From Candidatus Omnitrophota bacterium (GTDB lineage Bacteria; Omnitrophota; Gorgyraeia; 2-02-FULL-51-18), in contig JACQQX010000029.1 of NCBI GenBank assembly GCA_016206805.1, positions 1 through 51,715 on the forward strand: 51,715 nt of DNA, read 5' to 3'. Of this stretch, positions 1 through 50,595 are shown one piece after another (the first letter of the stretch is position 1; the number at the start of each line of letters is the position of its first letter). Under the pieces are notes generated by a model. It made no database searches, was not told the DNA's origin, and worked only from the letters and a program-made list of their open reading frames with translations. Made by a program: the position numbers and the translations under genes.

Positions 1-52
1 CCAATTTTTCAAATTTCAATGCTCTAAACCTCTTGTTTGATATTTTGGTCAT
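1..52 (-). CDS. partial hypothetical protein, 5' end only (possibly another four-helix-bundle/IVS-type protein)
   Basis: ATG at 52-50 reads MTKISNKRFRALKFEKL and runs off the window edge. A TCGTG-type heptamer array (70-97) lies just upstream, as for the 4HB gene at 3143-3526. Only 17 codons are visible. Confidence 0.2.
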   Translation of the reverse strand, partial: MTKISNKRFRALKFEKL

Positions 53-69
53 TTTAATTTTGAATTTGT

Positions 70-97
70 TTCGTGCTTCGTGCTTCGGATTTCGTGC
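70..97. repeat. tandem heptamer array TTCGTGC x4 (third unit degenerate, TTCGGAT)
   Basis: Read directly: ttcgtgc ttcgtgc ttcggat ttcgtgc. It has the same 7-nt period and TCGTG core as the arrays at 959-986, 3097-3124 and 3522-3552. Confidence 0.75.
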
Positions 98-103
98 TTG
101 CCC

Positions 104-943
104 TCATATATTGCTCCCAACATTCCGGTCTACCGGTGTCAAAACGCCATCTTTGGACAGTGCGTAGTCCGTGTCGAGTTCCTGCCGCGCCACTTTCTCG
201 ATCTCATCTTTCAAAGACCCCATGATTTTAGTTTGAAGCATCAAAAGCGCCGGGTCCTGCTCCTTGCGAGGACGCGGAACAGGGATGGGGTATTCTTTTT
301 TGATCGTGCCGGGGCGCGCGGTGATTTCAAAAACACGGTCGGACAAAAATGTCGCTTCGCGCACGTTGTGCGTGACAAATAAAATCGTTTTCTTCGTTTT
401 CTGCCAGATCTCTTGAAGCTCGACTTGCAAAAGATTGCGGGTCTGGGCGTCCAGGGCGGCAAAAGGCTCGTCCATCAATAGAATCCGGGGATTCATCACC
501 AGCGCCCGCGCGATGGCCGCGCGCTGCTTCATGCCACCGGAAAGCTCATGCGGATGCGCGTTCACAAAACGCGCCAAATGCACCATCTTGATGGCGGCCA
601 GCGCACGCTCCCTTCTTTCTTTTTCAGGCACACCAGCCAGCTTTAAGCCAAATTCGACATTGCCAAGGACGCTGAGCCAGGGAAATAAAGCCGCTTCTTG
701 GAAAACCACAAGCCTGTCGCGGGAGGGCCCTTCCACACGTTTGGAATCGACAAACACTTCGCCGGAATCGGGAAATTCCAGCCCCGCAATCAATGAAATC
801 AGAGTCGATTTTCCGCATCCGGAAGGCCCGATCACGCAGATGAACTCCCCTTCTTCAATAGTAAAATTCACATCGGAAAGGACTTGAACCCTCTGCCCTT
901 TTTGCTCGAAACTCTTATGCACTCGCCGTAAAACTACTCTCAT
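104..943 (-). CDS. ABC transporter ATP-binding protein, NitT/TauT (nitrate/sulfonate/taurine) type
   Basis: Walker A GPSGCGKST, signature LSGGMKQR, Walker B ILLMDEPFAALD and an H-loop (FVTHN). Overall resemblance to SsuB/TauB. ATG at 943. Confidence 0.9.
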   Translation of the reverse strand: MRVVLRRVHKSFEQKGQRVQVLSDVNFTIEEGEFICVIGPSGCGKSTLISLIAGLEFPDSGEVFVDSKRVEGPSRDRLVVFQEAALFPWLSVLGNVEFGLKLAGVPEKERRERALAAIKMVHLARFVNAHPHELSGGMKQRAAIARALVMNPRILLMDEPFAALDAQTRNLLQVELQEIWQKTKKTILFVTHNVREATFLSDRVFEITARPGTIKKEYPIPVPRPRKEQDPALLMLQTKIMGSLKDEIEKVARQELDTDYALSKDGVLTPVDRNVGSNI

Positions 944-955
944 TGCAAAACCTCG

Positions 956-1702
956 TTAGTCGTGAGTCGTGGGTCGTGGGTCGTGAGCGAACGGTTTTGG
1001 TTTCAGATGTAAACCGCACTCCTTGTGTTCAGGATTTTCCCACCACCACCGGCCGGAACGAAGGTCTTCGCCGGGTTTCACCGCGCGCGTGCAAGGCGCG
1101 CAGCCGATGGAAGGATAGCCCTGGTCATGCAATTTATTGTAAGGAACATTGTTTTTCTTGATGTAATTCCAAACGTCGTCATTGGTCCAATCCGCCAGCG
1201 GGCTGATCTTCACGATACCGCCGTTAGCTTCATCGATTTCGATTTTCTGAATGTCTGTTCGCGTCACCGACTGGTCACGCCTTAAACCCGTCACCCAGGC
1301 TTCAACGCCCTGCAGCGCGCGCTTGAGCGGCTCGACCTTGCGGATCCCGCAGCATTCTTTGCGATTCTCGACGGATTCCCGAAAGGAATGAAAACCTTTG
1401 GCCCGTTCCAATGCTTCGACTTTTTTGAAATCGGGAAAATAACTTTCGATGCTGATGTGGTATTTCTCGCGGATGCGGTCCATGACGTCATACGTCTCTT
1501 CGTTGAGACGGCCCGTGTCGAGCGTGAAAATCCTGATCTTGGGATCCAACTTCACGAGAATGTCGATCAACACCACATCCTCCGCGCCAAAAGAAGAGGC
1601 CACCGTTATCTTGGAGCCAAATGTCCTCAGCGCCCATTGCAACAACGCCACCGCCGAGGACTTTTCAAATTCCTTATTAAGTTGTTGTAAGTTAAGTTTC
1701 AT
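956..1702 (-). CDS. cysH: adenylylsulfate (APS) reductase, thioredoxin-dependent, Fe-S type CysH
   Basis: Carries the catalytic ECGLH motif plus the Fe-S cysteine pairs KECCGIRKVEPL and SIGCAPCT, which distinguish APS from PAPS reductases. The C-terminal tail AHDPRPTTHD is encoded by the heptamer array. Confidence 0.9.
   Translation of the reverse strand: MKLNLQQLNKEFEKSSAVALLQWALRTFGSKITVASSFGAEDVVLIDILVKLDPKIRIFTLDTGRLNEETYDVMDRIREKYHISIESYFPDFKKVEALERAKGFHSFRESVENRKECCGIRKVEPLKRALQGVEAWVTGLRRDQSVTRTDIQKIEIDEANGGIVKISPLADWTNDDVWNYIKKNNVPYNKLHDQGYPSIGCAPCTRAVKPGEDLRSGRWWWENPEHKECGLHLKPKPFAHDPRPTTHD
959..986. repeat. heptamer array GTCGTGA GTCGTGG GTCGTGG GTCGTGA
   Basis: tagtcgtgagtcgtgggtcgtgggtcgtgag is nearly identical to 3095-3125. 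It lies at the cysH 3' end, 13 nt from the ABC ATPase start. Confidence 0.9.
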
Positions 1703-1714
1703 GGTTTTATGTCT

Positions 1715-1819
1715 GCGGTAGCGGTAACGAAGCCCGTATCGTTCGGCGGCTTGCGTCTTTCGTTGTGCTTTTGACGATACCGAAACCGACCAACGATACG
1801 GGCTTCGTTACCGCCACCG
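1715..1819. repeat. long inverted repeat (about 28-bp arms, about 48-nt spacer) in the cysN-cysH intergenic region
   Basis: The left arm gcggtagcggtaacgaagcccgtatcgtt (1715-1743) is the reverse complement of aacgatacgggcttcgttaccgccaccg (1792-1819) with one mismatch. Confidence 0.85.
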
Positions 1820-1832
1820 TTTAACGAGCGGT

Positions 1833-3146
1833 TCATATCGCCACCATGGGCTCGGCGGCCTTTAAAATAATCCCTCCGCCCCTCACCTGCCTGTCATGGA
1901 CCAGGACAAAACGGCCCGTTTCGGTCACGGCGTCAAAGGGGTCAAATACAATGGGTTTTTTAGTCACTAAGATCAACTCCGCCACTTCATTTTTGGCGAC
2001 CGAGCGGGAGCTTTTGGAAATCTCATCCAACGTCGAAGAGTTGATGACTTTTAAAATCGCCTCCACAACGCACTCCACTTCTTGTGTAGTGAGTTTCAAA
2101 ATGCATTTGGCGCCTTTCTCCAGATGAAGATTGCCCATCCAGAAAATATGCACAAAAAGGGAGTTGGTCACCTGCGCGGCGGTATCCGGCCGGCAGGCCA
2201 CTTCTCCGCGCTCCACAAATATCTGGTCTTCCAACACAATTCCGATGGATTCTCCGGCGGACGCTTTCTGTCGCGCCTGCCCGCCAGCGCTTTTTGGCGG
2301 GTGCCATTTTTCAATGGACTTCACCACGCCCGTTTTCTTGGACGGCAAAAATAAAAGTTCTTCTCCCACCGAAAGACTCCCGGACTCGATACGGCCGGCG
2401 AAAATCCTCTGCTTGTCAAATTTGTAAACATCCTGCAACGGAAAACGAAGCGGCTTGTCAACACTGGATGCCGGAGGATCGAGGCTATCCAGCGTTTCCA
2501 AAAGCGAAGGCCCCTGATACCAGGACATTTTTTGGCTTCTTTTGATCAGGTTTTCGCCGTAATAGGCGGCCAGCGGAATAAAAGCGTGTGGGGTGACCTT
2601 GATCGAGGCCAGGTGCTTTTCATATTCGGCGCGGATGGCGTCGAATACTTCTTTTTTGTAATCGACCAAGTCCATTTTATTGATCACGATGAGAATCGTT
2701 TTGACGCCCAAAAGCGAAAGCAGTGTCGCGTGACGCTTGGATTGTTCGCGCAGGCCCTCTTCGGCGTCAATCAACAAAATCGCCACATCCGCCGTCGAGG
2801 CGCCGGAAATCATATTCTTCAAAAACTCCTTATGTCCGGGCGCGTCGATAATGCTGTAAGGACGCTTGGAAGATTTGAAAAAAACCTGCGAAACGTCAAT
2901 GGTAACGCCCTGGTCCTGCTCTTCTTCCAAAGCGTCCAGCAAAAACGCGTATTCAAACTTCATGCCCTTTTCTTTGCAAATCTCCTCAACGTTACGGATA
3001 CGCTGCGGCGTCAGGGAATTGGTCTCCGCCAAAAGCCGCCCCACCAGCGTCGACTTCCCGTGATCCACATGCCCGACAAAAACAATGCGCAGGCTAGTCG
3101 TGAGTCGTGGGTCGTGGGTCGTGGGCAAGCCGGATGAGCTTGTCAT
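1833..3146 (-). CDS. cysN: sulfate adenylyltransferase subunit 1 (GTPase)
   Basis: GTPase motifs GHVDHGKST, DAPGH and NKMD with an EF-Tu-like fold. I place the start at ATG 3146, which overlaps the TGA of the upstream 4HB gene (ATGA). The track start at 3179 is less likely. Confidence 0.9.
   Translation of the reverse strand: MTSSSGLPTTHDPRLTTSLRIVFVGHVDHGKSTLVGRLLAETNSLTPQRIRNVEEICKEKGMKFEYAFLLDALEEEQDQGVTIDVSQVFFKSSKRPYSIIDAPGHKEFLKNMISGASTADVAILLIDAEEGLREQSKRHATLLSLLGVKTILIVINKMDLVDYKKEVFDAIRAEYEKHLASIKVTPHAFIPLAAYYGENLIKRSQKMSWYQGPSLLETLDSLDPPASSVDKPLRFPLQDVYKFDKQRIFAGRIESGSLSVGEELLFLPSKKTGVVKSIEKWHPPKSAGGQARQKASAGESIGIVLEDQIFVERGEVACRPDTAAQVTNSLFVHIFWMGNLHLEKGAKCILKLTTQEVECVVEAILKVINSSTLDEISKSSRSVAKNEVAELILVTKKPIVFDPFDAVTETGRFVLVHDRQVRGGGIILKAAEPMVAI
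3097..3124. repeat. heptamer array GTCGTGA GTCGTGG x3 (one arm of the inverted pair flanking the 4HB gene)
   Basis: Read directly. It lies inside the 5' end of cysN, where it encodes PTTHDPRLTT, and is inverted relative to 3522-3552. Confidence 0.9.
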
Positions 3147-3526
3147 AGTTTTTTGATTAGAGATTGGATCATCTTGCATATATACTCCAGTTTATTTAAA
3201 AGAATTGTCGCTTGTTCTGTGCTTAGGTAGCTCAGTCGTCTGGCTATTTCAATTTGCGTTTCCAATTCCCCACACGAACCAAGGGAAATGCCTAAAAACT
3301 GCTTATATTCTTTGGCGTAGTTTCTACGAAAACCTTCTGCTATATTCGAGGGTATCGAAATCGCCGCTCTTTGCATTTGTGAAGTTAAACTATACACTTC
3401 GGTTTTTGGAAAAGAAGTAGTTATTTTGTATATCTCTTCTACAAAAACCATACTTTCCTGCCATATTCTCAAATCCCTGAAACTTTTTATTCTCGGCTCG
3501 CTCACAACCGCCTTTCGTTCGCTCAC
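3143..3526 (-). CDS. four-helix-bundle protein (23S rRNA intervening-sequence protein / Avd-like family)
   Basis: The N-terminus has FRDLRIWQES, followed by QMQRAAISIPSNIAEGF and GSCGELETQIEIA, which are typical of this family. It is inserted between cysD and cysN. A GTG start at 3526 or at 3505 is possible. Confidence 0.85.
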   Translation of the reverse strand: MSERKAVVSEPRIKSFRDLRIWQESMVFVEEIYKITTSFPKTEVYSLTSQMQRAAISIPSNIAEGFRRNYAKEYKQFLGISLGSCGELETQIEIARRLSYLSTEQATILLNKLEYICKMIQSLIKKL

Positions 3527-3552
3527 AACTCACGACCCACGACTCACGACTA
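3522..3552. repeat. inverted copy of the heptamer array (ctcacaa ctcacga cccacga ctcacga cta)
   Basis: Its reverse complement tagtcgtgagtcgtgggtcgtgagttgtgag matches 3095-3124. It abuts the cysD stop codon (3550-3552). Confidence 0.9.
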
Positions 3553-4353
3553 CATATACCCTTTCGCTCTTAATTTTTGCATAGCGTAGCGCTGGGAATG
3601 GTCCTGTTCACGCCCTACGCGCTCGGAAACTTTTGTATTTTTTAGCTCTTCGACTATTTTTTCAATCGTGTCCGCGTCCGACTCCACGGGCTTAGTGATC
3701 GGCATGCAACCGAGCGTGCGGTAGCGCTTGCCGTTTTTGGCGAAATACAAATCGACTACCGGAATGTTTTCGCGCTGGACATAACGCCACACGTCGATCT
3801 CCGTCCACTCCAAAAGCGGGTGGATCCTCACATGCGTGTCCTTGTCATAGTCGGACTGAAACTGATTCCAAAGCTCCGGAGGCTGATCCTTGTAGTCCCA
3901 TTCAAAATCGATGTTGCGCGGCGAAAAAAACTTTTCCTTCGCGCGCGTGCCGTCCTCGTCGCGCCGGATGCCGACAATGAGGCCATTCCACTTTTCCTTG
4001 GCCAGCATCTGCTGGAGGCCCACGGTCTTCATCTCGTGGCACACCGTCACGGGGTCATTGTTCTGGTAATTGATCCCGCGCCGGATCGCGTCTTGATTGG
4101 TGCCGACGATAAGGTTCAGGTCCCATTCTTTGGCGTATTTCTCGCGGTAGGCGTACATCTCGGGAAATTTAAAAGTCGTATCAATATGCACGGCCGGAAA
4201 TGGCACCCGCCCGAAAAACGCCTTGCGCGCCAGCCAAATCAAAACCGTCGAATCCTTCCCCATCGACCAGAGCATGGCCAGCTTATCAAACTTCTTGTAA
4301 GCTTCTCTCAAAATAAAAATCGACTGATTTTCAAGCTTATCCAACTGATCCAT
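3550..4353 (-). CDS. cysD: sulfate adenylyltransferase subunit 2
   Basis: PAPS-reductase-like fold with SMGKDSTVL, and full-length resemblance to CysD. Confidence 0.92.
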   Translation of the reverse strand: MDQLDKLENQSIFILREAYKKFDKLAMLWSMGKDSTVLIWLARKAFFGRVPFPAVHIDTTFKFPEMYAYREKYAKEWDLNLIVGTNQDAIRRGINYQNNDPVTVCHEMKTVGLQQMLAKEKWNGLIVGIRRDEDGTRAKEKFFSPRNIDFEWDYKDQPPELWNQFQSDYDKDTHVRIHPLLEWTEIDVWRYVQRENIPVVDLYFAKNGKRYRTLGCMPITKPVESDADTIEKIVEELKNTKVSERVGREQDHSQRYAMQKLRAKGYM

Positions 4354-4398
4354 AGCCCGCCTCTATATAAGTATATTAGTCATATATATTACTAATAA

Positions 4399-4427
4399 AA
4401 CGTACCATACATAACCATTTTTGTCAA
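4399..4427 (-). promoter_or_regulatory. candidate sigma70 promoter for cysD (TTGACA-17-TACGTT)
   Basis: On the minus strand, TTGACA lies at 4427-4422 and TACGTT at 4404-4399, within an AT-rich 76-nt gap. The -10 box is weak. Confidence 0.3.
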
Positions 4428-4429
4428 AT

Positions 4430-4972
4430 TTAAACTCTGGCGGGAAGCGGGTGGGGTAGAACGGTCTCCAAATACGCCTCGATGGCATCAAGGCTCTCCT
4501 GAACGCTTATTAAATGAGTGTCAATGGTGATTTCGGGATAAAGAGGCTCTTCGTAAATATCCGATATGCCCGTAAAATTTCTGATCCTTCCGCTGCGCGC
4601 CGAGCGGTACATGCCCTTCACGTCCCTTTGCTCGCAGATTTCAACGGGGCAGCGTAAATAGATTTCGATAAAACGCCCTATCCGTTTCCGCGCGTCTTGA
4701 CGCGCCTGACGATAAGGTGACACCAGAGACACCAAAACCCATCGGCCTTCTTTCAAATGCCGGGCGGCCAGGATTGAAACGCGCCGAATGTGAACCATCC
4801 GGTCCACGGCGGAAAAATCCAGATCGGGCGAAAGCGTTTTTCTCAGATCATCGCCATCCAGCTGCGCGACCGGGAGTCCCGAGGCGGCCAGTTTTTTCTC
4901 GAGAGCCAAAGCGATGGTTGTCTTTCCGGAGCAAGGCAGACCTGTAAACCACAAAACGAAATTTTCACTCAC
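4430..4972 (-). CDS. cysC: adenylylsulfate kinase
   Basis: P-loop GLPCSGKTT and a DGDDLR motif. The start overlaps the stop of the upstream sulfotransferase gene by 4 nt. Confidence 0.9.
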   Translation of the reverse strand: MSENFVLWFTGLPCSGKTTIALALEKKLAASGLPVAQLDGDDLRKTLSPDLDFSAVDRMVHIRRVSILAARHLKEGRWVLVSLVSPYRQARQDARKRIGRFIEIYLRCPVEICEQRDVKGMYRSARSGRIRNFTGISDIYEEPLYPEITIDTHLISVQESLDAIEAYLETVLPHPLPARV

Positions 4973-5754
4973 AAAGCCGCCATGCGCAAAATAGCGTAAT
5001 GCTCTTGTCCGAGCAAAGCCAAAACTTCGTTATAATTTTGGACTAGGGCATGTCCCTGGCGGTTTTGTTTTCGAAGCGCGCTTGAAACCTTCGAAACCGG
5101 CAGGCGGAGAAACGGAAAAATCATGGCGTTAAAAATACCCTGAGGACTTTCCACTAAACTCTCATAGTCCACCATGATGGAACATTCTCTCAACCATGCA
5201 TGTCGGAGCAAATCACCGTAATAAGACCGGATTGTTGAGCAAAAAGCTCGGTATTCCTCCGTATCGACCCGCAGCGATTGGGGCAGCGGCGTTTCGTCCG
5301 TCGACTGCCAGATACCGCTCCCCTCGGCGATCTTTAAGGACACGAATTGATCAAAAAGCGAGCGCCGGTAAAGAATAATGAAGCGCGCTTTCGGAAAAAG
5401 GCTTCTGACATCTTCCACCGTCACCCCATGAGCCTCCATTTGAAACATGAGAAGCTTGGCCCCGCAAACCGCTTGATCACCGTCATAAATCGAATGCCGG
5501 ATATGCCGCAATACCGCCTTTTTTGAAAGTCCGGACCAGCGGAGGCCGTAATACATGTCCGGATTCAAAATCTCGGCTGCCATCTCCACGGCTGGAACGG
5601 AATTCAGGAGACTCAAAAGAAAATTACTGCCGGAACGCCGAGTCGCGATAATGAATAGGGGCTCCCTGACTTCTCTTTTTCTAAAGAGATACTTAAAATG
5701 GATTCTGGTCCGGTGGAGTAACCTTTTTTTAATGAGTTTGAGTCTTCTTTTCAT
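4969..5754 (-). CDS. sulfotransferase family protein
   Basis: The N-terminal segment IIATRRSGSNFLLSLL resembles a PAPS 5'-phosphosulfate-binding loop. The size is right and the gene is coupled to cysC. Confidence 0.65.
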   Translation of the reverse strand: MKRRLKLIKKRLLHRTRIHFKYLFRKREVREPLFIIATRRSGSNFLLSLLNSVPAVEMAAEILNPDMYYGLRWSGLSKKAVLRHIRHSIYDGDQAVCGAKLLMFQMEAHGVTVEDVRSLFPKARFIILYRRSLFDQFVSLKIAEGSGIWQSTDETPLPQSLRVDTEEYRAFCSTIRSYYGDLLRHAWLRECSIMVDYESLVESPQGIFNAMIFPFLRLPVSKVSSALRKQNRQGHALVQNYNEVLALLGQEHYAILRMAAL

Positions 5755-5813
5755 GAAACACCCTTGACATCTATTTGTTTAAAATTGATATGGGGAATTA
5801 AATTAGAGCGAAA

Positions 5814-6131
5814 TCAGGCGATTGAGGACGGAGGAGATCGGAGAAACCGAAAAAAAAGAACGGGGAAGATGATGAAAAAGAGAAGGACCGGAAACAGAAA
5901 ATGGTTGAAGGGCATCCACTCACGAAAATGCGGGTCGTCAACCACAGCGTTGCTTTTGATTTTATTATAAAGTGCCCGGCGGACAAAATGATAGCCCGAC
6001 GATGATTTAAGGCTGGTTTGTCCTTTAAGCTCCAGATTCTTTTCGTTCTGATGCCGGATCTCCGCCAAACCAAAACGGAGAGGAAAGATAAAATAAACGA
6101 AAAGAATAAGAGACGCCAGAACTCTCTTCAT
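5814..6131 (-). CDS. hypothetical membrane/secreted protein
   Basis: Hydrophobic N-terminus and a C-terminal TM-like segment. No recognisable family. Confidence 0.35.
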   Translation of the reverse strand: MKRVLASLILFVYFIFPLRFGLAEIRHQNEKNLELKGQTSLKSSSGYHFVRRALYNKIKSNAVVDDPHFREWMPFNHFLFPVLLFFIIFPVLFFRFLRSPPSSIA

Positions 6132-6729: not shown

Positions 6730-6937
6730 GTTATTCTCCCACTATTTAGTTAATATTCTATTTAAAGTGGTTCACTTTACCCATATTAAACCATTATCTA
6801 AAGTTTTAGGTTTATTAAGTATTTAACAAAATTTCTAATTTCACACCATAACGGATTAAAATTAGATTAAAACCATTCCCAAATGGAATAATCTCGAACT
6901 ATTTTCTTCCTAATTTTCCTATTGAAGCAAGTATACA

Positions 6938-7756
6938 CTATCCATCTTTAAATTTTTGAAAAAGTCCCAGCAGTATCAGCAGCGCCCCAAAGACACACAC
7001 CACACTGGCGCCCGTCGGCCAATCAAAAAAGTAAGACGCGGTCATCCCCAACGCACTGGCAATGACTCCCACCAGCCAACCAATCCAAAGGCGGGTCTTG
7101 ATCGCCGTTGAAAAAAGAAGCGCGGCGGCCGATGGCACGATGAGGAAAGAAAAGACAAGAAGCACGCCGGCGATCTTCACGGAACTGGTCACCACCACTC
7201 CGAAGGATGCGTAAAATAGAAAGTCCCAGAAACGCACGCGTAGTCCCTGGCGGTACGCCTCTTCCGGATTTTGTGAAATAAGAAGAAATTGGCGCCTGAA
7301 TATATAATGCATAATTCCCACCGCTGAATAGATCCACACAATCTTGATAAGCTCTGACGGAGTAACCAGGAGAATATTCCCGGTAAAAGCCTGGCGAATG
7401 TGTTCGTCGCCTTCACCGAAACGACTGAGGACTAAGAAAAGAAAAGCCGCCGAGACCGCATAGGCGATGCCAATCACCGCTTCTTGGGGGATGCGCTGTT
7501 TTTTGCGACGCGTGAGCGAAAAAAATAACGCGCCTAGAATGGTGAAGCCCAGAGACACCGCATAAGACAGGCCGCTATCCATTCCAAGACCGAAAACCAG
7601 CGCCAGCCCCGCGCCGAGGGCGGCGATTTGAGCGAGCGCCAGGTCGACAAAAATCACCTGGCGCTCGATCACATGAAGCCCTAGATACGCATGAATGCCC
7701 GTCAAAATCAGGCAGGCCAGAAACGGCATAGCCATCGCGTGCAGGAATTCGTTCAA
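6938..7756 (-). CDS. metal (Zn/Mn/Fe) ABC transporter permease, ABC-3 (ZnuB/TroD-like)
   Basis: Polytopic membrane protein with ABC-3 family resemblance. It overlaps the stop of the binding-protein gene by 4 nt. Confidence 0.85.
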   Translation of the reverse strand: MNEFLHAMAMPFLACLILTGIHAYLGLHVIERQVIFVDLALAQIAALGAGLALVFGLGMDSGLSYAVSLGFTILGALFFSLTRRKKQRIPQEAVIGIAYAVSAAFLFLVLSRFGEGDEHIRQAFTGNILLVTPSELIKIVWIYSAVGIMHYIFRRQFLLISQNPEEAYRQGLRVRFWDFLFYASFGVVVTSSVKIAGVLLVFSFLIVPSAAALLFSTAIKTRLWIGWLVGVIASALGMTASYFFDWPTGASVVCVFGALLILLGLFQKFKDG

Positions 7757-8670
7757 CGGAGCGCTTCTGTCATTTGACTGAAATTATAATCAAAGAAGCT
7801 CAAGATGTCATCCGTTCCAGGCAGCTCTCCGATATGCTGGGCTATCATCACTACTTTCGCGTCTATCCGCTTGGCCAGCGCTTCCACCGGACCTTTGGGA
7901 TAATAAGTCGGCATCGCAATCGCCCGGATATGGTTTTCTTTGCCATAACGCTCCAGAAACTGCAGGTGCTTGGGGGTCGGCGGAATCCCGGGCTTGGGTT
8001 CTAAAAACTGCTCGGCCTTGATGCCCAAAAAGTCGGCCATGTATTCGAAGTCATCATGATAGGAAATGACTTCCTTTCCGCGAATCGGATCGGAAAGCGC
8101 TTTCCATCCGGCGATTTTTTGGTCCAGGCGAGAAATAAAATCCCGCGCATTCGCTTCGTAATCATGAGCGTTCGCGGAATCGATTTCTTTGAGTTTCAGA
8201 AGCAGTGTGCCGGCCACGATCCGGATATTTTCCGGATTCATCGCATAATGCGGGTTTCCGAAAACATGGATATCGCCGGAAGCGCGGGACAGGTTTCCCC
8301 GCGGCACCTTTAAAAGCCGGATCCCAAGTGACAAGTCCACATTTCTCGGGCCGCCCCTGAAAAGATCGGCTTTCCCGGCCGCTTCCAAGAGCGGATCCAC
8401 CCACGCCTCCAAGTCCAGTCCCGTGAAAATAAACAGATCCGCGCGAGCGGTGTTCCGGACGTCGCTGGGACGCGGCTGGATAAAGTGAATATTGAACTTC
8501 GGCGAAGCGATGGACTTCACATTCACTTTATCGCGACCGATTTGCCGCGCCAGATCCGCGAAAGTCGTCGTCGTGGCCACGATTTGCAACTTAGCTTCCG
8601 CGTGAAGGGGACTTGTCAGGGTTATTGAAAGAACGCCCAATAAAAATAAAGTTCTGATTTTATGAAACAT
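7753..8670 (-). CDS. metal ABC transporter substrate-binding protein (ZnuA/TroA-like)
   Basis: Signal peptide plus HVFGNPHY and SYHDDFEY ligand-type motifs, consistent with the TroA fold family. Confidence 0.85.
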   Translation of the reverse strand: MFHKIRTLFLLGVLSITLTSPLHAEAKLQIVATTTTFADLARQIGRDKVNVKSIASPKFNIHFIQPRPSDVRNTARADLFIFTGLDLEAWVDPLLEAAGKADLFRGGPRNVDLSLGIRLLKVPRGNLSRASGDIHVFGNPHYAMNPENIRIVAGTLLLKLKEIDSANAHDYEANARDFISRLDQKIAGWKALSDPIRGKEVISYHDDFEYMADFLGIKAEQFLEPKPGIPPTPKHLQFLERYGKENHIRAIAMPTYYPKGPVEALAKRIDAKVVMIAQHIGELPGTDDILSFFDYNFSQMTEALR

Positions 8671-8689
8671 GTTTTTCTCCTATAAAGAT

Positions 8690-8778
8690 GTCATCTCGAG
8701 GAGCGTAGCGACGAGAGATCTGTTTTGAAACAAGTTTAAAACGGATTTCTCGGCCGCCTGCGGCGCCCTCGAAATGAC
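8690..8778. repeat. inverted pair of GTCAT(T/C)TCGAGG...GAGA(A/G)ATC palindromic units
   Basis: Units are gtcatctcgaggagcgtagcgacgagagatc (8690-8720) and gatttctcggccgcctgcggcgccctcgaaatgac (8744-8778, inverted). Same family as 10841-10914 and 42403-42485. Confidence 0.85.
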
Positions 8779-41917: not shown

Positions 41918-42381
41918 TGGGCGCTCCGCCATACAGGATTTTCTTTGATACCAGCGCATACATCGCCGGGTTACATTCGCCTGAGAGCGCGGCGCGGGAG
42001 CTTTTAAATATGGCGGCGTCGGAAACGATCGCCATGGTCGTTTCTGAAAAGGTTATCACGGAAATTGACCGCGTGATGACTAGAAAATTTCCCGATTTGG
42101 TTCAGGAAAGCCGGCAGATTTGGAAAAACCTGAAGCCGGAAGTTGTTCCAAATCCATCGACAAGCGCCGTCAAGCCCTTCTTGGAAAAGCTCGATAAAGC
42201 CGACGCCGCTATTTTGTGCTCCGCGCATTTGGCTAAAGTTTCGGCATTCGTGACCTGGAACACGCGTGACTTCATGGCGCATGGGATAAGCGCCCTTGTT
42301 GATTTCCCTATAGTGGTCCCGGCGAACGCGCTGAAGCTGTTCAGAAAATGGATAGAGCCGTTTTTAGATTACCATAATTAA
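41917..42381 (+). CDS. PIN-domain toxin (ribonuclease)
   Basis: FFDTSAY with an acidic residue, ADAAILCSA, and VTWNTRDF, typical of PIN toxins. Confidence 0.75.
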   Translation: MGAPPYRIFFDTSAYIAGLHSPESAARELLNMAASETIAMVVSEKVITEIDRVMTRKFPDLVQESRQIWKNLKPEVVPNPSTSAVKPFLEKLDKADAAILCSAHLAKVSAFVTWNTRDFMAHGISALVDFPIVVPANALKLFRKWIEPFLDYHN

Positions 42382-42514
42382 CCGTTTGCTGAAAAACCCC
42401 GTGTCATTTCGAAGTCGCCTCGGCGACTGAGAAATCTCGATCTGAAAAACGAGATCTCTCAGCCCATCCTGGGCTTCGAGATGACGACTTGGGGGTTTTT
42501 CAGCAGACTGTTAA
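42378..42514. mobile_element. 137-bp nested-palindrome MITE-like element with TTAA ends
   Basis: Outer inverted repeats are ttaaccgtttgctgaaaaacccc (42378-42400) and gggggtttttcagcagactgttaa (42491-42514), matching 21/23. Inner units are gtcatttcgaag...gagaaatc (42403-42436) and gagatctctc...cttcgagatgac (42451-42485). The centre is atctcg/cgagat. Confidence 0.75.
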
Positions 42515-42587
42515 TTTATGCGTACTCCCGACAGCGCCGTGGTGGCTTTGATTTGCGCGCTGTTTAACACAGCTTAACTCGATAATC

Positions 42588-45500
42588 TTAGGCGGGAGGC
42601 GGAACAGCCGCTTCTACGTCTTCAGGCTCAACCTTAGCGACGGTGGTGACGCGGTCGTTTTCTTTTTTGAGGTTAATGAGGCGGACGCCCTGGGCAACCC
42701 GGCCAGTTTCGCGGATGTCCTTGACGGAGCAGCGCACGACCATGCCTTCTTTGGTCATGATCATGACGTCATCTTTGCCGCCGACGCATTTGAGACCGAC
42801 GACTTCGCCGTTTTTCTCGGTGACCTTGATGTTGGTGACCCCCTTGCCGCCGCGGGAAGTGACGCGGTATTCATTCACGAGCGACCGCTTGCCAAACCCT
42901 TTTTCGGTGACGGAAAGCAGCGTCGCGTCCTTATCCACCACTTCCATGCCGATCAAATAGTCTTTTCCATCCAGCGTAATGCCGCGCACACCGCCGGCGG
43001 CGCGCCCCATGCTGCGCACCAAAGTCTCAGGGAAACGAATGGCCTTGCCTTCGCGAGTGGCCAGAAAGATTTCCTGCTTGCCATCGGTTAGCTCGGCTTC
43101 GATGAGCTCATCTTTGGGGTCAAGTCCGATAGCGACGATGCCGCTGCGGCGGGTATTCTCAAAGTCGGTCAAATCGCATTTTTTAATCTGCCCTAAACGC
43201 GTGGCCATCACGATGTACTGCCCTTCCGTAAACTGGCGCACCGGCATGTAGGAGGTGATCTTCTCCCCTTGCGCCAATGAGACAAAGTTGGCGATGAATT
43301 TGCCCTTGGAAATACGGCTGGCCTGAGGAATCTCATGCACCTTGATGACAAAGGCTTTGCCTTTCGAGGTGAAAAGCAGCAGGTTGTCATGGGTAGAAGC
43401 GACAAAAAGGTGCTCAACAAAGTCCTCTTCGACGCCGCCCGAACCCACGCCCACGCCGCCGCGCTTTTGTTTGCGGTAAGTCGTCACCGGCAGGCGCTTC
43501 ACATAGTTTTGATGGCTGATCGTGACCACCACGTCTTCGTCGGCGATCAAGTCTTCGACATCAAACTCGGTATCCAGGCTGCGGGCGATCTCCGTGCGGC
43601 GCTCATCGCCGTATTTTTCCTTCAGCTGAGCGAGCTCTTCCTTCACAATTTCAAGAACTTTCTTTTCGGACTTCAAAATCGACTCGAGATACTCGATTCG
43701 TTTCAGAAGCTCTTTGTATTCCTCTTCGAGCTTATGAATTTCAAGGCCGGTGAGCTTTTGAAGCTGCATTTCCAGGATCGCCTGGGCCTGCTTGTCTGAA
43801 AACTCATAGGTTTCCACGAGCGCGACTTTCGCCTCGGCGGGATTCTTGGACTTCCGGATGGTTTTGATGATTTTGTCGAGAATGTCAACGGCTTTTTTCA
43901 AACCCTCGACGATATGCGCGCGGGCCTTGGCTTTTTCCAGGTCAAACTGGGTGCGGCGGATGATGATTTCCTTGCGATGACGGATGTATTCGTGAATGAT
44001 TTCCTTGAGTTTCAAAACCTTGGGGCTGCCGTCCACCAGCGCCAGCAGGATAATGCCAAAAGTCGTCTGCATCTGCGTGTGCTTGTACAAAAGATTGAGC
44101 ACCACCTGCGCGTTGGCGTCCCGCTTCAAATCAATCACAAGCCTCATGCCGTCTTTATCCGACTCATCGCGCACGTCGGAGATGCCTTCGATCTTTTTGT
44201 CGTTGACGAGAGCCGCGATATTTTCGATCAGATTGGCCTTATTCACCTGATAGGGAATTTCGGTGATCACAATGGCCTGTTTGTTGTTTCTGATCTCTTC
44301 CACACCGGCCTTGGCGCGAATCTTGAGCAGTCCCCGGCCGGTTTCGTAAGCGGACTTGATGCCTTCGGTCCCGCAAATCGTGGCCGCCGTCGGGAAATCG
44401 GGACCCTTGATATGTTTCATCAATTCTTTGGTCTCGATCTCGGGGTTGTCGATTTGCGCGGCGATGGCGTCGGCTACTTCTTTCAAATTGTGCGGCGGAA
44501 TGTTGGTCGCCATGCCCACGGCGATGCCGCTGGAGCCGTTGCAAAGGAGGTTGGGAAGTGTCGCCGGCAACAGCGTGGGCTCTTCCAGCGTCTCGTCGAA
44601 ATTGGGCGCAAAATTGACCGTCTCCTTCTCAATGTCCCCCAGCATCGCGTCCGTGATGCCGGCCAGCCGCGCTTCGGTGTTGTGGTTAATAAAACCATTG
44701 GCGACAAATGAGTGACAGTCACTATCAACTTTTATGGAGTAGACCCGCGCGGGCGCGGTTTTTTCTATTTGGCAGACGGGGTCAAAGAAATACCGATTCC
44801 TCAAGAGATCCTCCATCAGCGCCGACGCTTCAGGCTGGGTTCGCGGCGCCAGGGCAAAGGCGACGGAAGCGGCGTGCTCTTGGAGACCGGCATACCGGTC
44901 AAAGTTGTGCTTCCTCACAAAATCGCGTTTGGACCATGCCGTCTTTTTGTCAAGCCTTGATCGAACGAAGCGGCTTAGAAAGGGGATGAAGTCCGTGCGC
45001 GACGAAACTTTGTGATATCGACTCAGCGCCATCTGAAGCCTTTCGTTCTTGCGCATGGAGACAAAACCGATTTCTTTCTGGAAATTCCGATAATTGTCCA
45101 TGCCCCTGATGTACAGTTTGTGCATCGCGCGGTGCTTATCAAAACGCTTGGTGGAAGCGATGCCAAATCTTAGAAGCAAAATCTGAATCTGCCGAATAAG
45201 CGTCTGGCTCGAAGAAACGCAAGAAAGCTCCGCCATCTTTTGTCCGCTGACAGACACACCGCCGTCACCCTCAAAATAAGCGCGAAGGAATGCCGCGACC
45301 ATCGCGCGGGGGGATCTGAGAAGAAGATGCGGTATCTCCCGATACGGGGACTTGGCGGGCGAAAGGCCTATCGCCCGCAGGAACGCGATCACCTGCCCCG
45401 AATGGATCTCCCGCGTCTGGTAAGGTTTCTTGCCGTAAGAGCTGGGTCGTCGCGTGAAAGCATGCAGTCGGCAGTCAGGAAACACGCGCCGCCAGCGCGC

Positions 45501-46430
45501 GTCGAACTCTTCCAGCCACTGAGGATCGCTGTTGCAAAATTCAAGCTCCTTTTCTTTGAGCGTGCCCTCGGAAACAAGGGCGCCTAAAATAAAAGCCAGA
45601 TCCTCCGAGAAGAGCTTGGGAAGTATTTTGGGCTGTGTTCGTCCCCGCGCTTCCGGCCAATAACCAACCAAAGACGCGGGCTCTTCCGGCCACAGCTGAT
45701 CCGGAGTCCTGTCGATCACCGCGACATCGCCGACGCCCAGTTGACTCAATAGCTTCCACCGAAAATCCGGCCGGCCCGTCTGGGGGTCAGCCGCCCATGT
45801 CAGAATGGGATGATTATAAGACCCCCGCAGGGAGAAGCCCCGCCCCGTTGTAATTTTGAGCGTGGGATGCGTTCCGCTGTCGAACCATTTTGAAGCCGAA
45901 TGAACCCTGCCCTCGCGTGAAAGAACCAGCGTATCGATCTCTTCGGTGCCGCCGGAATACTCCCGGCGGGACAATAATTCCGCGATGGGAATAAGTCCCT
46001 GATCCGTGACCATCAAGGTATCCCCGGTCACGCAATAGCGCATCGCGGCCGGGCTGTCGCCGTCGACGGAGCCGAAATTACCCTGGCCGTCGACCAACGG
46101 ATAGCGCAGGGAGAAATCCTGAACCATGCGCACCAGCGTGTCATACACCGCCGTGTCCCCGTGAGGATGGAATTTTCCAAGGACCTCGCCTACGATGCGG
46201 GCGGATTTCTTGTAAGGTTTGGAGTGGTCCAGCCCCAGCTCGCGCATCGCGTAAAGGATGCGGCGATGCACCGGCTTCAGGCCGTCGCGGACATCCGGCA
46301 GGGCGCGCCCGACGATGACGCTCATCGCGTAATTGAGGTAGGACGTTTTCATCTCCTGCTCGATGAAAACGGGGACTATTTTTTCGTTCTTGGCGTATTT
46401 ATTTTCCGTTTTTTCTGTTTTATCGGCCAT
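42588..46430 (-). CDS. gyrA: DNA gyrase subunit A (intein-containing precursor)
   Basis: GyrA motifs [12 protein letters not shown] and AAMRY/TEARL, plus the C-terminal beta-pinwheel. I place the start at ATG 46430 (MADKTEK). Confidence 0.95.
44679..46034 (-). mobile_element. GyrA intein (452 aa) with LAGLIDADG homing-endonuclease domain
   Basis: It is inserted directly after the catalytic Tyr: AAMRY | CVTGDTLMV ... [11 protein letters not shown] | TEARL. Block B is SYNHP. LAGLIDADG-type motifs are [12 protein letters not shown] and [12 protein letters not shown]. Confidence 0.9.
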
Positions 46431-46490
46431 GCTAAATATCCAGGTTCCGCACCTCGCGCGCGTCCGCCACAAAGCACGGCGGATGCGCTG

Positions 46491-50595
<4,105 letters not shown>

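Follow-up and report, generated by a model that had tools for sequence, protein, structure and literature searches.

A four-helix-bundle gene cassette, probably of the rRNA intervening-sequence type, at the cysD/cysN junction of an Omnitrophota bacterium

Here, we describe a gene cassette in the cys operon of a Candidatus Omnitrophota bacterium (contig JACQQX010000029.1; its 51,715 nucleotides, the whole stretch of DNA analyzed, are called the window below). The cassette occupies positions 3095-3552 on the minus strand and is probably an intervening sequence (IVS) of the kind found in 23S rRNA that has settled in an mRNA instead. As a unit, it comprises a G-rich tandem heptamer array, a four-helix-bundle (4HB) gene of the PF05635/TIGR02436 family, and a C-rich array complementary to the first. 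A sequence-only reading of this DNA had proposed a 4HB cassette between cysD and cysN, bracketed by inverted heptamer arrays, and both the sequence and a repeat search bear this out.

The minus-strand order is cysD, the G-rich (GUCGUGR)n array, the 4HB gene, and the complementary C-rich array, which lies within cysN. The upstream host gene, cysD, spans 3550..4353 (NF003587 CysD, 368 bits), and the downstream host gene, cysN, spans 1833..3146 (TIGR02034, 349 bits, with the match beginning at residue 30 of the long ORF). The cysN AUG (3146..3144) sits on the 4HB stop codon (TGA, 3145..3143) to form an ATGA overlap at 3143..3146, and the C-rich arm is read as CysN residues ~8-17 (PTTHDPRLTT); the sequence-only reading had given both details correctly. 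The CysN family model starts at LRIVFVGHVDHGKS, and the tail of 18 residues ahead of it is evidently cassette-derived. No ATG, GTG, or TTG that could serve as an alternative cysN start lies between the arm and the P-loop, except for a GTG inside the HVDHGKS motif, which would be too late. Since the cysN AUG overlaps the 4HB stop, the cysN start would lie inside the looped-out segment.

A promoter and terminator scan returned promoter-like sites at chance level, none of them usable ahead of the 4HB gene. The cassette leaves no space for its own promoter and is presumably transcribed within the cys operon RNA. PADLOC gave no defence-system match, and blastn with Escherichia coli 16S and 23S detected no rRNA, either in the window or at the 80 homologue loci. 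Rfam searches of positions 1-6000 found no known RNA families, rRNA included; the sole matches were sub-threshold, to a miRNA model, on both strands of a hairpin at 1716-1819.

The 4HB gene, the only one in the window, lies at 3143..3505 on the minus strand, within an ORF that extends to an upstream in-frame GTG (3143..3526). The product of the longer ORF matches PF05635 over model positions 1-105 of 106 (E 8e-41, 139 bits against a cutoff of 33.8) and TIGR02436 with 135.4 bits (cutoff, 24). Judged by these matches, the 4HB protein is a member of the 23S rRNA IVS protein (S23p) family. The 127-aa ORF of the sequence-only reading does exist from the GTG at 3526, but the GTG at 3505 is the more likely start (120 aa, MSEPRIKSFRDL...), because it agrees with the N-termini of homologues and has GAAAGG ahead of it. 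Homologues with E ≤ 1e-10 number 3587, and the nearest named matches come from Omnitrophota MAGs. Among PDB sequences, phmmer places 2GSC (XCC0516, E 2.1e-24) as the nearest solved structure and also retrieves 2RLD (E 1.8e-4). dN/dS is 0.06-0.11 in related cassettes, which indicates strong purifying selection and thus a function for the 4HB protein, be it the element's or the host's.

The protein could also be taken for the Avd accessory protein of a diversity-generating retroelement, given weak matches to PF22296 (31.2 bits), NF033474 (30.7 bits), and phrog_3206 (E 2.7e-10). This identification is hardly credible. Both curated models score under their cutoffs (40 and 80 bits, respectively), no reverse-transcriptase domain is present among the larger ORFs scanned up to ~18.5 kb, no template/variable repeat was noticed, and the gene is located inside the cys operon.

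Repeat search and folding define two arms on the mRNA, both on the minus strand. The 5' arm (3504..3552, core 3522-3552) is a G/U-rich heptamer array (UAG UCGUGAG UCGUGGG UCGUGAG UUGUGAG...), and the 3' arm (3095..3143, core 3095-3124) is a C/A-rich array complementary to it. Positions 3095-3124 read TAGTCGTGAGTCGTGGGTCGTGGGTCGTGG, with a near reverse complement at 3522-3552. The first triplet of the 5' arm, UAG (3552..3550), is the cysD stop codon, and the 4HB ribosome-binding region falls within the inner part of the same arm. The repeat finder reports a 21-nt core with 95% complementarity (3103-3123 / 3531-3551) and extended arms of 49 nt with 78% complementarity (3095-3143 / 3504-3552). 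From shuffled sequence, 0.03 occurrences of the two-unit pattern GTCGTGRGTCGTGR would be expected; the window contains 9, all of them within three arrays. TRF assigns a period of 7 to the stretches 953-987, 3097-3125, and 3522-3551 (4.1-5.0 copies). The arrays have the defining form of heptameric tandem repeats, namely at least three head-to-tail 7-nt units at a gene junction.

Folding of the minus-strand RNA (3080-3570), a check that the sequence-only reading had called for, closes the long stem (MFE -147.6 kcal/mol, z = -5.8). Positions 3551-3531 are predicted to pair with 3096-3116 (21 bp) at a pair probability of ~1.0. The expected stem that loops out the whole ORF is thus recovered, but not the ~28 bp proposed for it: uninterrupted pairing covers 21-22 bp, beyond which mismatched pairing reaches as far as the starts of 4HB and cysN, one on each side.

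At the cysH/ABC-ATPase junction (957..993, plus strand), the repeat search also revealed a solo inverted copy of the cassette 5' end (TAGTCGTGAGTCGTGGGTCGTGGGTCGTGAGCGAACG), which was absent from the sequence-only reading. It comprises the array followed by GTGAGCGAACG, a match to the 4HB ORF sequence at its upstream in-frame GTG (3526). As a reverse complement of the 5' arm, this copy differs at 2 of 37 positions, and it is identical to the 3' arm over 29 nt; its calculated duplex with the 5' arm has an energy of -73.6 kcal/mol. It is read as an extra CysH tail (...FAHDPRPTTHD), while the CysH of relatives stops soon after ECGLH. The related locus L210 likewise has a solo 5'-arm copy at a neighbouring junction.

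We find that the cassette is sporadically distributed among the cysDN loci of relatives, the comparison of which had also been suggested from the sequence. Orthologous cassettes occupy the same cysD/cysN junction in L209 (arms GTCGTGA) and L210/L211 (in L210, arms GTCGCGG on both sides). The sites in L202, L203, and L204/L205 are empty, with a cysD stop (TGA or TAA) that overlaps or adjoins the cysN start, and L201 has a different insert there. Nucleotide homology between the window and its relatives stops at 3551/3552 and resumes at 3092-3095, with both breaks at the arms' outer ends. These breaks, together with the empty sites, identify the cassette as a discrete insertion. In L209 and L210, as in the window, the cysD stop is the arm's TAG, the loop encloses the cysN AUG, and translation of the 3' arm contributes to the CysN N-terminal tail. 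Relative to the window, L210 has a compensatory change of U-A to C-G that involves both arms.

CysD identity is 92-94% among carriers vs 79-88% to other relatives, and the 4HB proteins of orthologous cassettes are 68-69% identical. By these comparisons, the insertion is not recent and is inherited within a small clade; the cassette would have reached the cysD/cysN junction a single time, in that clade's ancestor, and been passed on since. Of the mobile, IVS-like cassette colonising mRNAs that the sequence-only reading envisaged, the insertion itself is upheld by the empty sites, and the occurrence in protein-coding operons extends across phyla.

We surveyed other 4HB loci for the same layout. 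Bracketing inverted repeats are present at 49 of 73 4HB homologue loci, compared with 6 of 170 control ORFs (Fisher p ~1e-26), 2 of which are further PF05635 genes; the other 24 homologue loci had no significant arms in this test. The repeat period is 7 in 40 of the bracketed loci and 8 in 9. Repeat units vary between loci, and the arms of each cassette are always complementary to one another. The G-rich arm is almost always upstream (G exceeds C in the 5' arm at 45/49 loci), the upstream gene is co-directional at 35 of 40 loci (the window itself left out), and the gaps to flanking genes are mostly ≤ ~20 nt. Cassettes of this type occur in protein-coding operons of many phyla, and none of those sampled lies in rRNA. 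The closest 4HB relatives are found in chemotaxis operons, with arms of the same heptamer family as those of the window. One operon in L159 has up to three cassettes at consecutive junctions. Cultured organisms also have this layout: Anabaena sp. 90 (ANA_RS23230, at the cas6/cas4 junction), Nostoc punctiforme (NPUN_RS35280, on pNPUN02), Geminocystis, and Riemerella (K6T44_RS09915).

Might slippage-prone heptamer microsatellites simply flank an unrelated small gene by chance? Bacterial intergenic DNA does contain an excess of heptameric repeats (PMC4692102), and the heptamer array as such is not 4HB-specific. GTCGTGR arrays occur at no fewer than 119 places in other genomes of many phyla, almost never beside a 4HB gene; ~7 of the 128 arrays listed from elsewhere have a same-unit partner within 900 nt, and many arrays are mixed. 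Even so, the excess of bracketed 4HB loci over controls, the complementarity of arms whose unit differs by locus, the constant polarity, and the co-change of both arms in L210 make such a coincidence very improbable.

A more serious, though still tentative, alternative is that the arms act in DNA, as terminal inverted repeats or as hairpin/cruciform sites, with the RNA stem as a by-product; this is compatible with a cassette of the IVS type. With similar caution, we consider as possible routes a trans-acting enzyme, recombination with "empty" heptamer hairpins, or template-switch repair that keeps the arms alike. Fold energies are equal for the sense and antisense strands, and the mismatches in the 49 stems (48 of G-U type, 61 of A-C type, and 128 other) show no sense-strand wobble bias, so complementarity could be kept at the DNA level. 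Furthermore, paralogous cassettes within one contig resemble each other only in the part between the arms, the same heptamer family accompanies closely related 4HB genes into different operons, and solo 5'-arm copies stand at neighbouring junctions in both the window and L210. Against this, the outermost paired dinucleotides of the 49 cassettes vary (AG 12, GG 7, TA 2, and others), inspection of the flanks by eye showed no direct repeat consistent with a target-site duplication, and no transposase gene lies in or beside the cassettes, which encode no mobility enzyme. The bias in host-gene orientation and the constant G-rich-upstream polarity would be unexpected for a purely DNA-level repeat, and the rRNA precedent is one of RNA processing.

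Several further candidates were rejected. A TA target-site duplication, with TA on either side of GTCGTGAG...CTCACGAC in the window, L209, and L207, is not general, as the outer dinucleotides vary. A second idea, that GTGAGCGAA in the 5' arm preserves an ancestral cysN start (relatives begin theirs with ATGAGCGAA), fails because the 4HB genes of homologue cassettes in other operons open with the same V/M-S-E codons. Finally, the 7-nt periodicity might have placed stops in every frame of the 5' arm while leaving the 3' arm free of them. This is a tendency only (stops in at least two frames of the 5' arm in 33/49 cassettes, and a stop-free 3' arm in 25/49), and it also follows from base composition.

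Under the preferred reading, an IVS-type cassette carried in mRNA, the arrays could pair within the cys transcript to give a duplex of at least 21 bp, with the 4HB reading frame predicted to be looped out. Evolution appears to have kept this duplex, as the heptamers vary with matching arms and both arms have co-changed in an orthologous copy. By analogy with the rRNA IVSs, RNase III would likely cleave the stem on untranslated transcripts. Given the cysN AUG inside the loop and the translated 3' arm, the stem would compete with ribosomes, and the cassette would not be quantitatively removed. Complete excision at cysDN is unlikely, because it would sever the cysN start codon, and the AUG is inside the loop in all three orthologous loci. 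Its presence there in three lineages suggests that efficient RNase III excision would be harmful at cysDN. The class probably behaves as a low-cost selfish or duplicative element that fits, in sense orientation, exactly between a stop and the next start.

The stem could instead serve the host, as a regulatory device that sets the CysD:CysN ratio by hiding the 4HB and cysN starts until ribosomes finishing cysD open it, with the 4HB protein as cofactor or passenger. In the predicted fold, the ribosome-binding region of the 4HB gene does pair with the start region of cysN in the upper stem, translation of cysN is coupled to that of 4HB through the ATGA overlap, and the arrangement is conserved in three lineages. 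We nevertheless regard this as quite unlikely: sister lineages do well without the cassette, with a direct cysD-cysN overlap, and the same cassette type is found in unrelated operons (che, cas, and many others), at up to three consecutive junctions in L159.

Returning to the IVS-type cassette, we also put forward a bolder, and doubtful, extension. The 4HB cassettes might be an autonomous, previously unrecognised class of mobile element, in which an Avd-like 4HB pentamer recognises its own heptamer-array stem and promotes copying into gene junctions and rRNA helices. Solo or empty heptamer arrays (STRR-type) would then be footprints or landing pads. If this holds, one mechanism would account for the origin of rRNA IVSs, the function of S23p/PF05635, and the excess of heptameric repeats.

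Our results tie together rRNA IVSs, the S23p/"four helix bundle protein" family, and the intergenic heptamer excess, which have been reported separately and left unexplained. In the sampled loci, the typical home of the 4HB family is the operon junction rather than rRNA, and the heptamer arrays are halves of a conserved stem. If this stem is processed or controls translation, the cassettes would alter the expression of many operons (cys, che, and cas among them) and represent overlooked processing sites in polycistronic mRNA. The arms also account for unusual low-complexity tails in the annotation of neighbouring proteins, among them ...THDPRLTT... (CysN) and ...HDPRPTTHD (CysH). Cultured carriers (Nostoc punctiforme, Anabaena sp. 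90, and Riemerella anatipestifer) make direct bench testing possible.

Among known systems, the ORF-bearing 23S rRNA IVSs of Coxiella burnetii and Leptospira share with the cassette the protein family S23p (PF05635) and a similar size of ~430-460 nt (PMC4990558). Both are embedded in a longer host transcript, with terminal inverted repeats that give a 20-30 bp stem around the whole ORF and with tandem heptamers in the 5' part, just ahead of the ORF. In Coxiella, RNase III excises the IVS, whose terminal stem is 28 bp long and which contains an S23p ORF and, on its 5' side, three GACAGAT tandem heptamers (PMC4990558); this agrees with the sequence-only reading's view that the cassette has IVS architecture and the same protein family. 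The cassette has the terminal stem and sporadic distribution of an IVS, but its host is a protein-coding operon junction instead of helix 25 or 45 of a 23S rRNA gene. Unlike those of the rRNA IVSs, its arms adjoin or overlap the stop and start codons of the host genes, and part of their sequence is translated. The Coxiella S23p copy is reported to be decaying (PMC4990558), whereas the 4HB gene of the cassette is under purifying selection. Furthermore, RNase III excision has been shown for the Coxiella IVS, while cleavage of the cysDN cassette is a prediction.

The solved family members 2GSC (XCC0516) and 2RLD (BT_0352-like) are sequence homologues of the cassette 4HB protein, and we know of no function for either. 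The 2GSC entry, from Xanthomonas campestris, contains five chains, and in its crystal structure (Lin et al. 2006, as cited in PMC4990558), the X. campestris S23p is a toroidal homopentamer of four-helix bundles. The Avd proteins of diversity-generating retroelements are distant relatives in the same four-helix-bundle fold family, with the cassette protein below Avd cutoffs.

Heptameric repeats have been reported as tandem heptanucleotides in Calothrix, GGGAATC in Xanthomonas, and GGGGA(C/T)T in Nostoc (in sections of PMC4692102), and as heptanucleotide elements of Geobacter (in sections of PMC2700814). As described there, they resemble the cassette arms in being 7-nt tandem repeats that are G-rich on one strand, lie at gene junctions near the end of the upstream gene, and often form convergent inverted pairs. 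Those sections treat the repeats alone, as G-quadruplexes, regulator sites, or slippage products, with no link to 4HB genes, whereas the arrays described here are the arms of a stem around a 4HB gene.

REP/BIME elements and MITEs are, like the cassette, short palindromic or inverted-repeat elements in intercistronic space. Within operon junctions, they are co-transcribed and able to affect mRNA processing. Of the marks of transposons and MITEs, the cassettes show no target-site duplication on inspection by eye, no conserved termini, and no transposase gene of their own. REP/BIME elements and MITEs are also geneless, whereas the cassette combines a conserved protein gene with periodic arms whose sequence differs by copy.

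The first 5.8 kb of the window are filled by a row of minus-strand genes: a sulfotransferase gene (5754..4972), cysC (4972..4430), cysD (4353..3550), a small open reading frame (ORF; 3526..3143), cysN (3146..1833), cysH (1702..956), and an ABC ATPase gene (943..104). The small ORF belongs to PF05635 (E 8e-41) and also to TIGR02436, “four helix bundle protein” (4HB; 135 bits versus a cutoff of 24), and the closest solved relative of its product is XCC0516 of Xanthomonas campestris (2GSC, E 2e-24). An Avd identity was rejected, the protein scoring under the Avd model cutoffs. Alignment of homologues makes the GTG at 3505, directly preceded by GAAAGG, the likely start, giving MSEPRIKSFRDL... and 120 amino acids. 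The dN/dS of the 4HB gene in related cassettes is 0.06-0.11, a ratio showing that the protein is under selection and has been kept by it.

We find that this gene is bracketed by inverted heptamer arrays, as a sequence-only reading had noted: TAGTCGTGAGTCGTGGGTCGTGGGTCGTGG occupies 3095-3124, and an almost exact reverse complement of it 3522-3552. A repeat finder delimits an inverted-repeat core of 21 nt (95% complementary) and extended arms of 49 nt (78% complementary), and the two-unit heptamer pattern occurs 9 times in the window, versus 0.03 expected. The pairing that had been proposed for the minus strand is reproduced in the predicted RNA fold of 3080-3570, in which both arrays pair (z = -5.8), with computed pair probabilities of ~1.0 for 3551-3531 with 3096-3116. 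Higher up in this fold, where the stem is imperfect, the ribosome-binding region of the 4HB gene is paired with the start region of cysN. The cassette (3095-3552) is also stitched into the operon: the first triplet of its 5' arm is the cysD stop UAG, the 4HB stop overlaps the cysN AUG (ATGA, 3143-3146), and CysN reads the 3' arm as PTTHDPRLTT, the last two as had been read previously.

Five relatives (L201-L205) were retrieved through their CysD proteins and two more (L209 and L210/L211) through 4HB proteins. cysD runs directly into cysN in L202, L203, and L204/L205, its stop adjacent to or overlapping the cysN start, and CysN starts only 4-30 residues ahead of LRIVFVGHVDHGKS. Nucleotide homology between the window and these empty-site relatives ends at 3551/3552 and restarts at 3092-3095, the exact outer ends of the arms. 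At the same junction (6805-7292), L201 carries an unrelated 489-nt repeat-filled insert with no ORF called, made up of two tandem copies of a ~150-nt unit and shorter direct repeats; the junction seems prone to insertions.

L209 and L210/L211, in contrast to the empty-site relatives, carry a 4HB cassette at the cysD/cysN junction. In these and in the window, cysD takes its stop from the TAG of the arm, and cysN has its AUG between the 4HB stop and the 3' arm, the latter being translated. Among the three carriers, CysD identity is 92-94%, versus 79-88% to other relatives, and CysN identity is 72-77%, versus 62-68%. By these identities the carriers form a clade, which points to one gain of a discrete cassette in the ancestor they share. 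At 68-69% identity, their 4HB proteins have diverged about as much as CysN. The suggestion of an inserted cassette is supported: comparison with L202, L203, and L204/L205 identifies it as an insertion, but one inherited within a clade and not recent.

The heptamer is GTCGTGR (5' arm) and YCACGAC (3' arm) in the window and L209, and GTCGCGG and CCGCGAC in L210; there, U-A has been replaced by C-G in each unit of both arms. Comparison of the arms thus shows complementarity maintained while their sequence changes. It may be selected in RNA or kept by a DNA process; a wobble bias was sought among the mismatches of 49 stems, and none was found.

The cassette had been proposed to colonize mRNAs as well as rRNA, and its generality is borne out. 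Among metagenome contigs, 80 loci with homologues of 43-63% identity were recovered, and the 250 nt upstream of each gene were aligned to the reverse complement of the 250 nt downstream, with shuffled controls. A bracketing inverted repeat well over these controls was present in 49 of 73 testable 4HB genes (the window's own included), versus just 6 of 170 other ORFs of the same loci (Fisher p ~1e-26); two of these six are themselves PF05635 genes, though more divergent ones. Each arm is a tandem array; a 7-nt period was seen in 40 loci and an 8-nt one in 9. The unit varies by locus (GTGCGTA, GTGAAGC, AGGGATT, AGGTAAC, GGGACTA, and others), while both arms of each cassette match. No rRNA was found in the window or in any homologue locus. 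Cassettes lie between codirectional genes: leaving the window out, 35 of 40 share the strand of their upstream neighbor. The 5' arm begins within ~20 nt of the upstream stop, the downstream start is close behind the 3' arm, and the upstream arm has G>C in 45 of 49. Across these loci, polarity and orientation are shown to be constant, and the bracketed layout is, on sequence grounds, a property of the 4HB gene family.

Single operons can hold several cassettes: three with different heptamers at consecutive gene junctions in L159 (1128-4376), and two in a cheB-cheA-cheC operon of an Omnitrophota MAG (L207; 486-926 and 2974-3399). In two cases, one contig holds a pair of paralogous cassettes; the members of each pair are ~78% identical, from arm to arm only. 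The closest relatives of the window's 4HB protein reside in che operons and carry the GTCGTGR/GTCTTGR unit found in the window; the arms therefore move together with the gene. Among cultured organisms, Anabaena sp. 90 has AGGTGAC arrays around a 4HB gene on plasmid pANA02 (L214, 1316-1976), between cas6 and cas4 of a type I-D CRISPR-cas operon; Nostoc punctiforme has CAGGAGT arrays in the cassette layout, which is also found in Geminocystis and Riemerella anatipestifer. Nostoc sp. PCC 7120 plasmids gamma and alpha (L212 and L213) carry identical 4HB genes adjoining IS elements. A 3' CTCTGCC heptamer array is retained, but no 5' counterpart could be detected, as if transposon insertions had disrupted the cassettes.

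Heptamer arrays are far commoner than cassettes. Three-unit GTCGTGR arrays occur at at least 119 loci in many phyla (~4 expected by chance; ~185,000 species genomes scanned); among the matches listed, three loci hold a 4HB gene inside the retrieved stretch (≤8 kb) and none holds one adjacent. Many are short “empty” hairpins or mixed arrays. In L044 (604-978), GTCGTGR and CACGACC arrays lie in inverted arrangement in the interval from an rsmD-like gene to coaD, with 342 nt of other direct repeats but no 4HB gene between them; the downstream ORF reads the 3' array as part of its N-terminus. A solo copy of the cassette 5' end, also inverted, occurs in the window at 957-993, at the cysH/ABC-ATPase junction; it comprises the array plus GTGAGCGAACG, the latter matching the 4HB ORF at its upstream in-frame GTG (3526). 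This copy lengthens CysH by ~16 residues (LKPKPFAHDPRPTTHD), adding ...FAHDPRPTTHD, a tail that CysH of relatives lacks, and might form a duplex with the 5' arm at a distance of 2.5 kb (calculated duplex, -73.6 kcal/mol). L210 has solo 5'-arm copies at two neighboring junctions.

Other repeats and inserts were also observed. A TTCGTGC array (70-99; 4.3 copies) directly follows the ABC ATPase gene and precedes the next minus-strand ORF, which runs past the window start. The cysN-cysH spacer is taken up by an “empty” hairpin (1716-1819; 37-nt arms, 89% complementary, 30-nt loop); L201, L203, and L209 also have long hairpins there, but their sequences are unrelated. A palindromic repeat including GTCATTGCGAG...CTCGCAATGAC recurs in intergenic spacers of the relatives' cys regions (L209, ~1930-2040 and ~4660-4735; L201, ~8610-8715); this element is REP-like and differs from the heptamer arrays. 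An inverted repeat (42376-42516; 25-nt arms, 92% complementary, 91-nt loop) lies directly downstream of the gyrA stop. The gyrA (42588-46472; 1294 amino acids) and gyrB (46491-50294; 1267 amino acids) genes are each ~450-600 residues over the usual length; gyrA matches an “intein-containing GyrA” model under its cutoff, the gyrB match is split by a large insert, and both probably bear inteins.

We propose that the cassette would be cotranscribed with its host operon and duplicate as one unit, and that its arms would pair in RNA as a duplex sensitive to RNase III. In all three carriers, the cysN AUG lies inside the loop, so cleavage would sever the cysN start codon, which counts against simple excision at this locus. 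In the window, the stretch from the arm to the P-loop contains no ATG, GTG, or TTG, although L209 has in-frame TTG and GTG codons there. More likely, the stem competes with translating ribosomes, and cleavage, if any, would fall on idle transcripts.

No paper linking heptamer repeats to 4HB genes, and no description of 4HB cassettes in operons, was found in the full-text literature, subscription journals being outside this coverage. The pattern is widespread and apparently undescribed, and is thus of more than local interest. Heptameric repeats are known to be over-represented in bacterial intergenic DNA and often form convergent pairs in Xanthomonas (PMC4692102), and Geobacter has families of four-heptamer elements (PMC2700814). 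The likeness to intervening sequences (IVSs) of 23S rRNA, suspected from the sequence, is close. The Coxiella burnetii IVS (428 nt) combines a terminal stem of 28 bp with an S23p ORF, directly 5' of which GACAGAT is repeated three times in tandem; RNase III excises this IVS, with the 5' cut at the first repeat (PMC4990558). The two share this design of stem, S23p-family ORF, and 5' heptamers, although the Coxiella element resides in 23S rRNA and the cassette in a different host RNA. We rate the cassette as an IVS-type 4HB element resident in mRNAs, with periodic arms.
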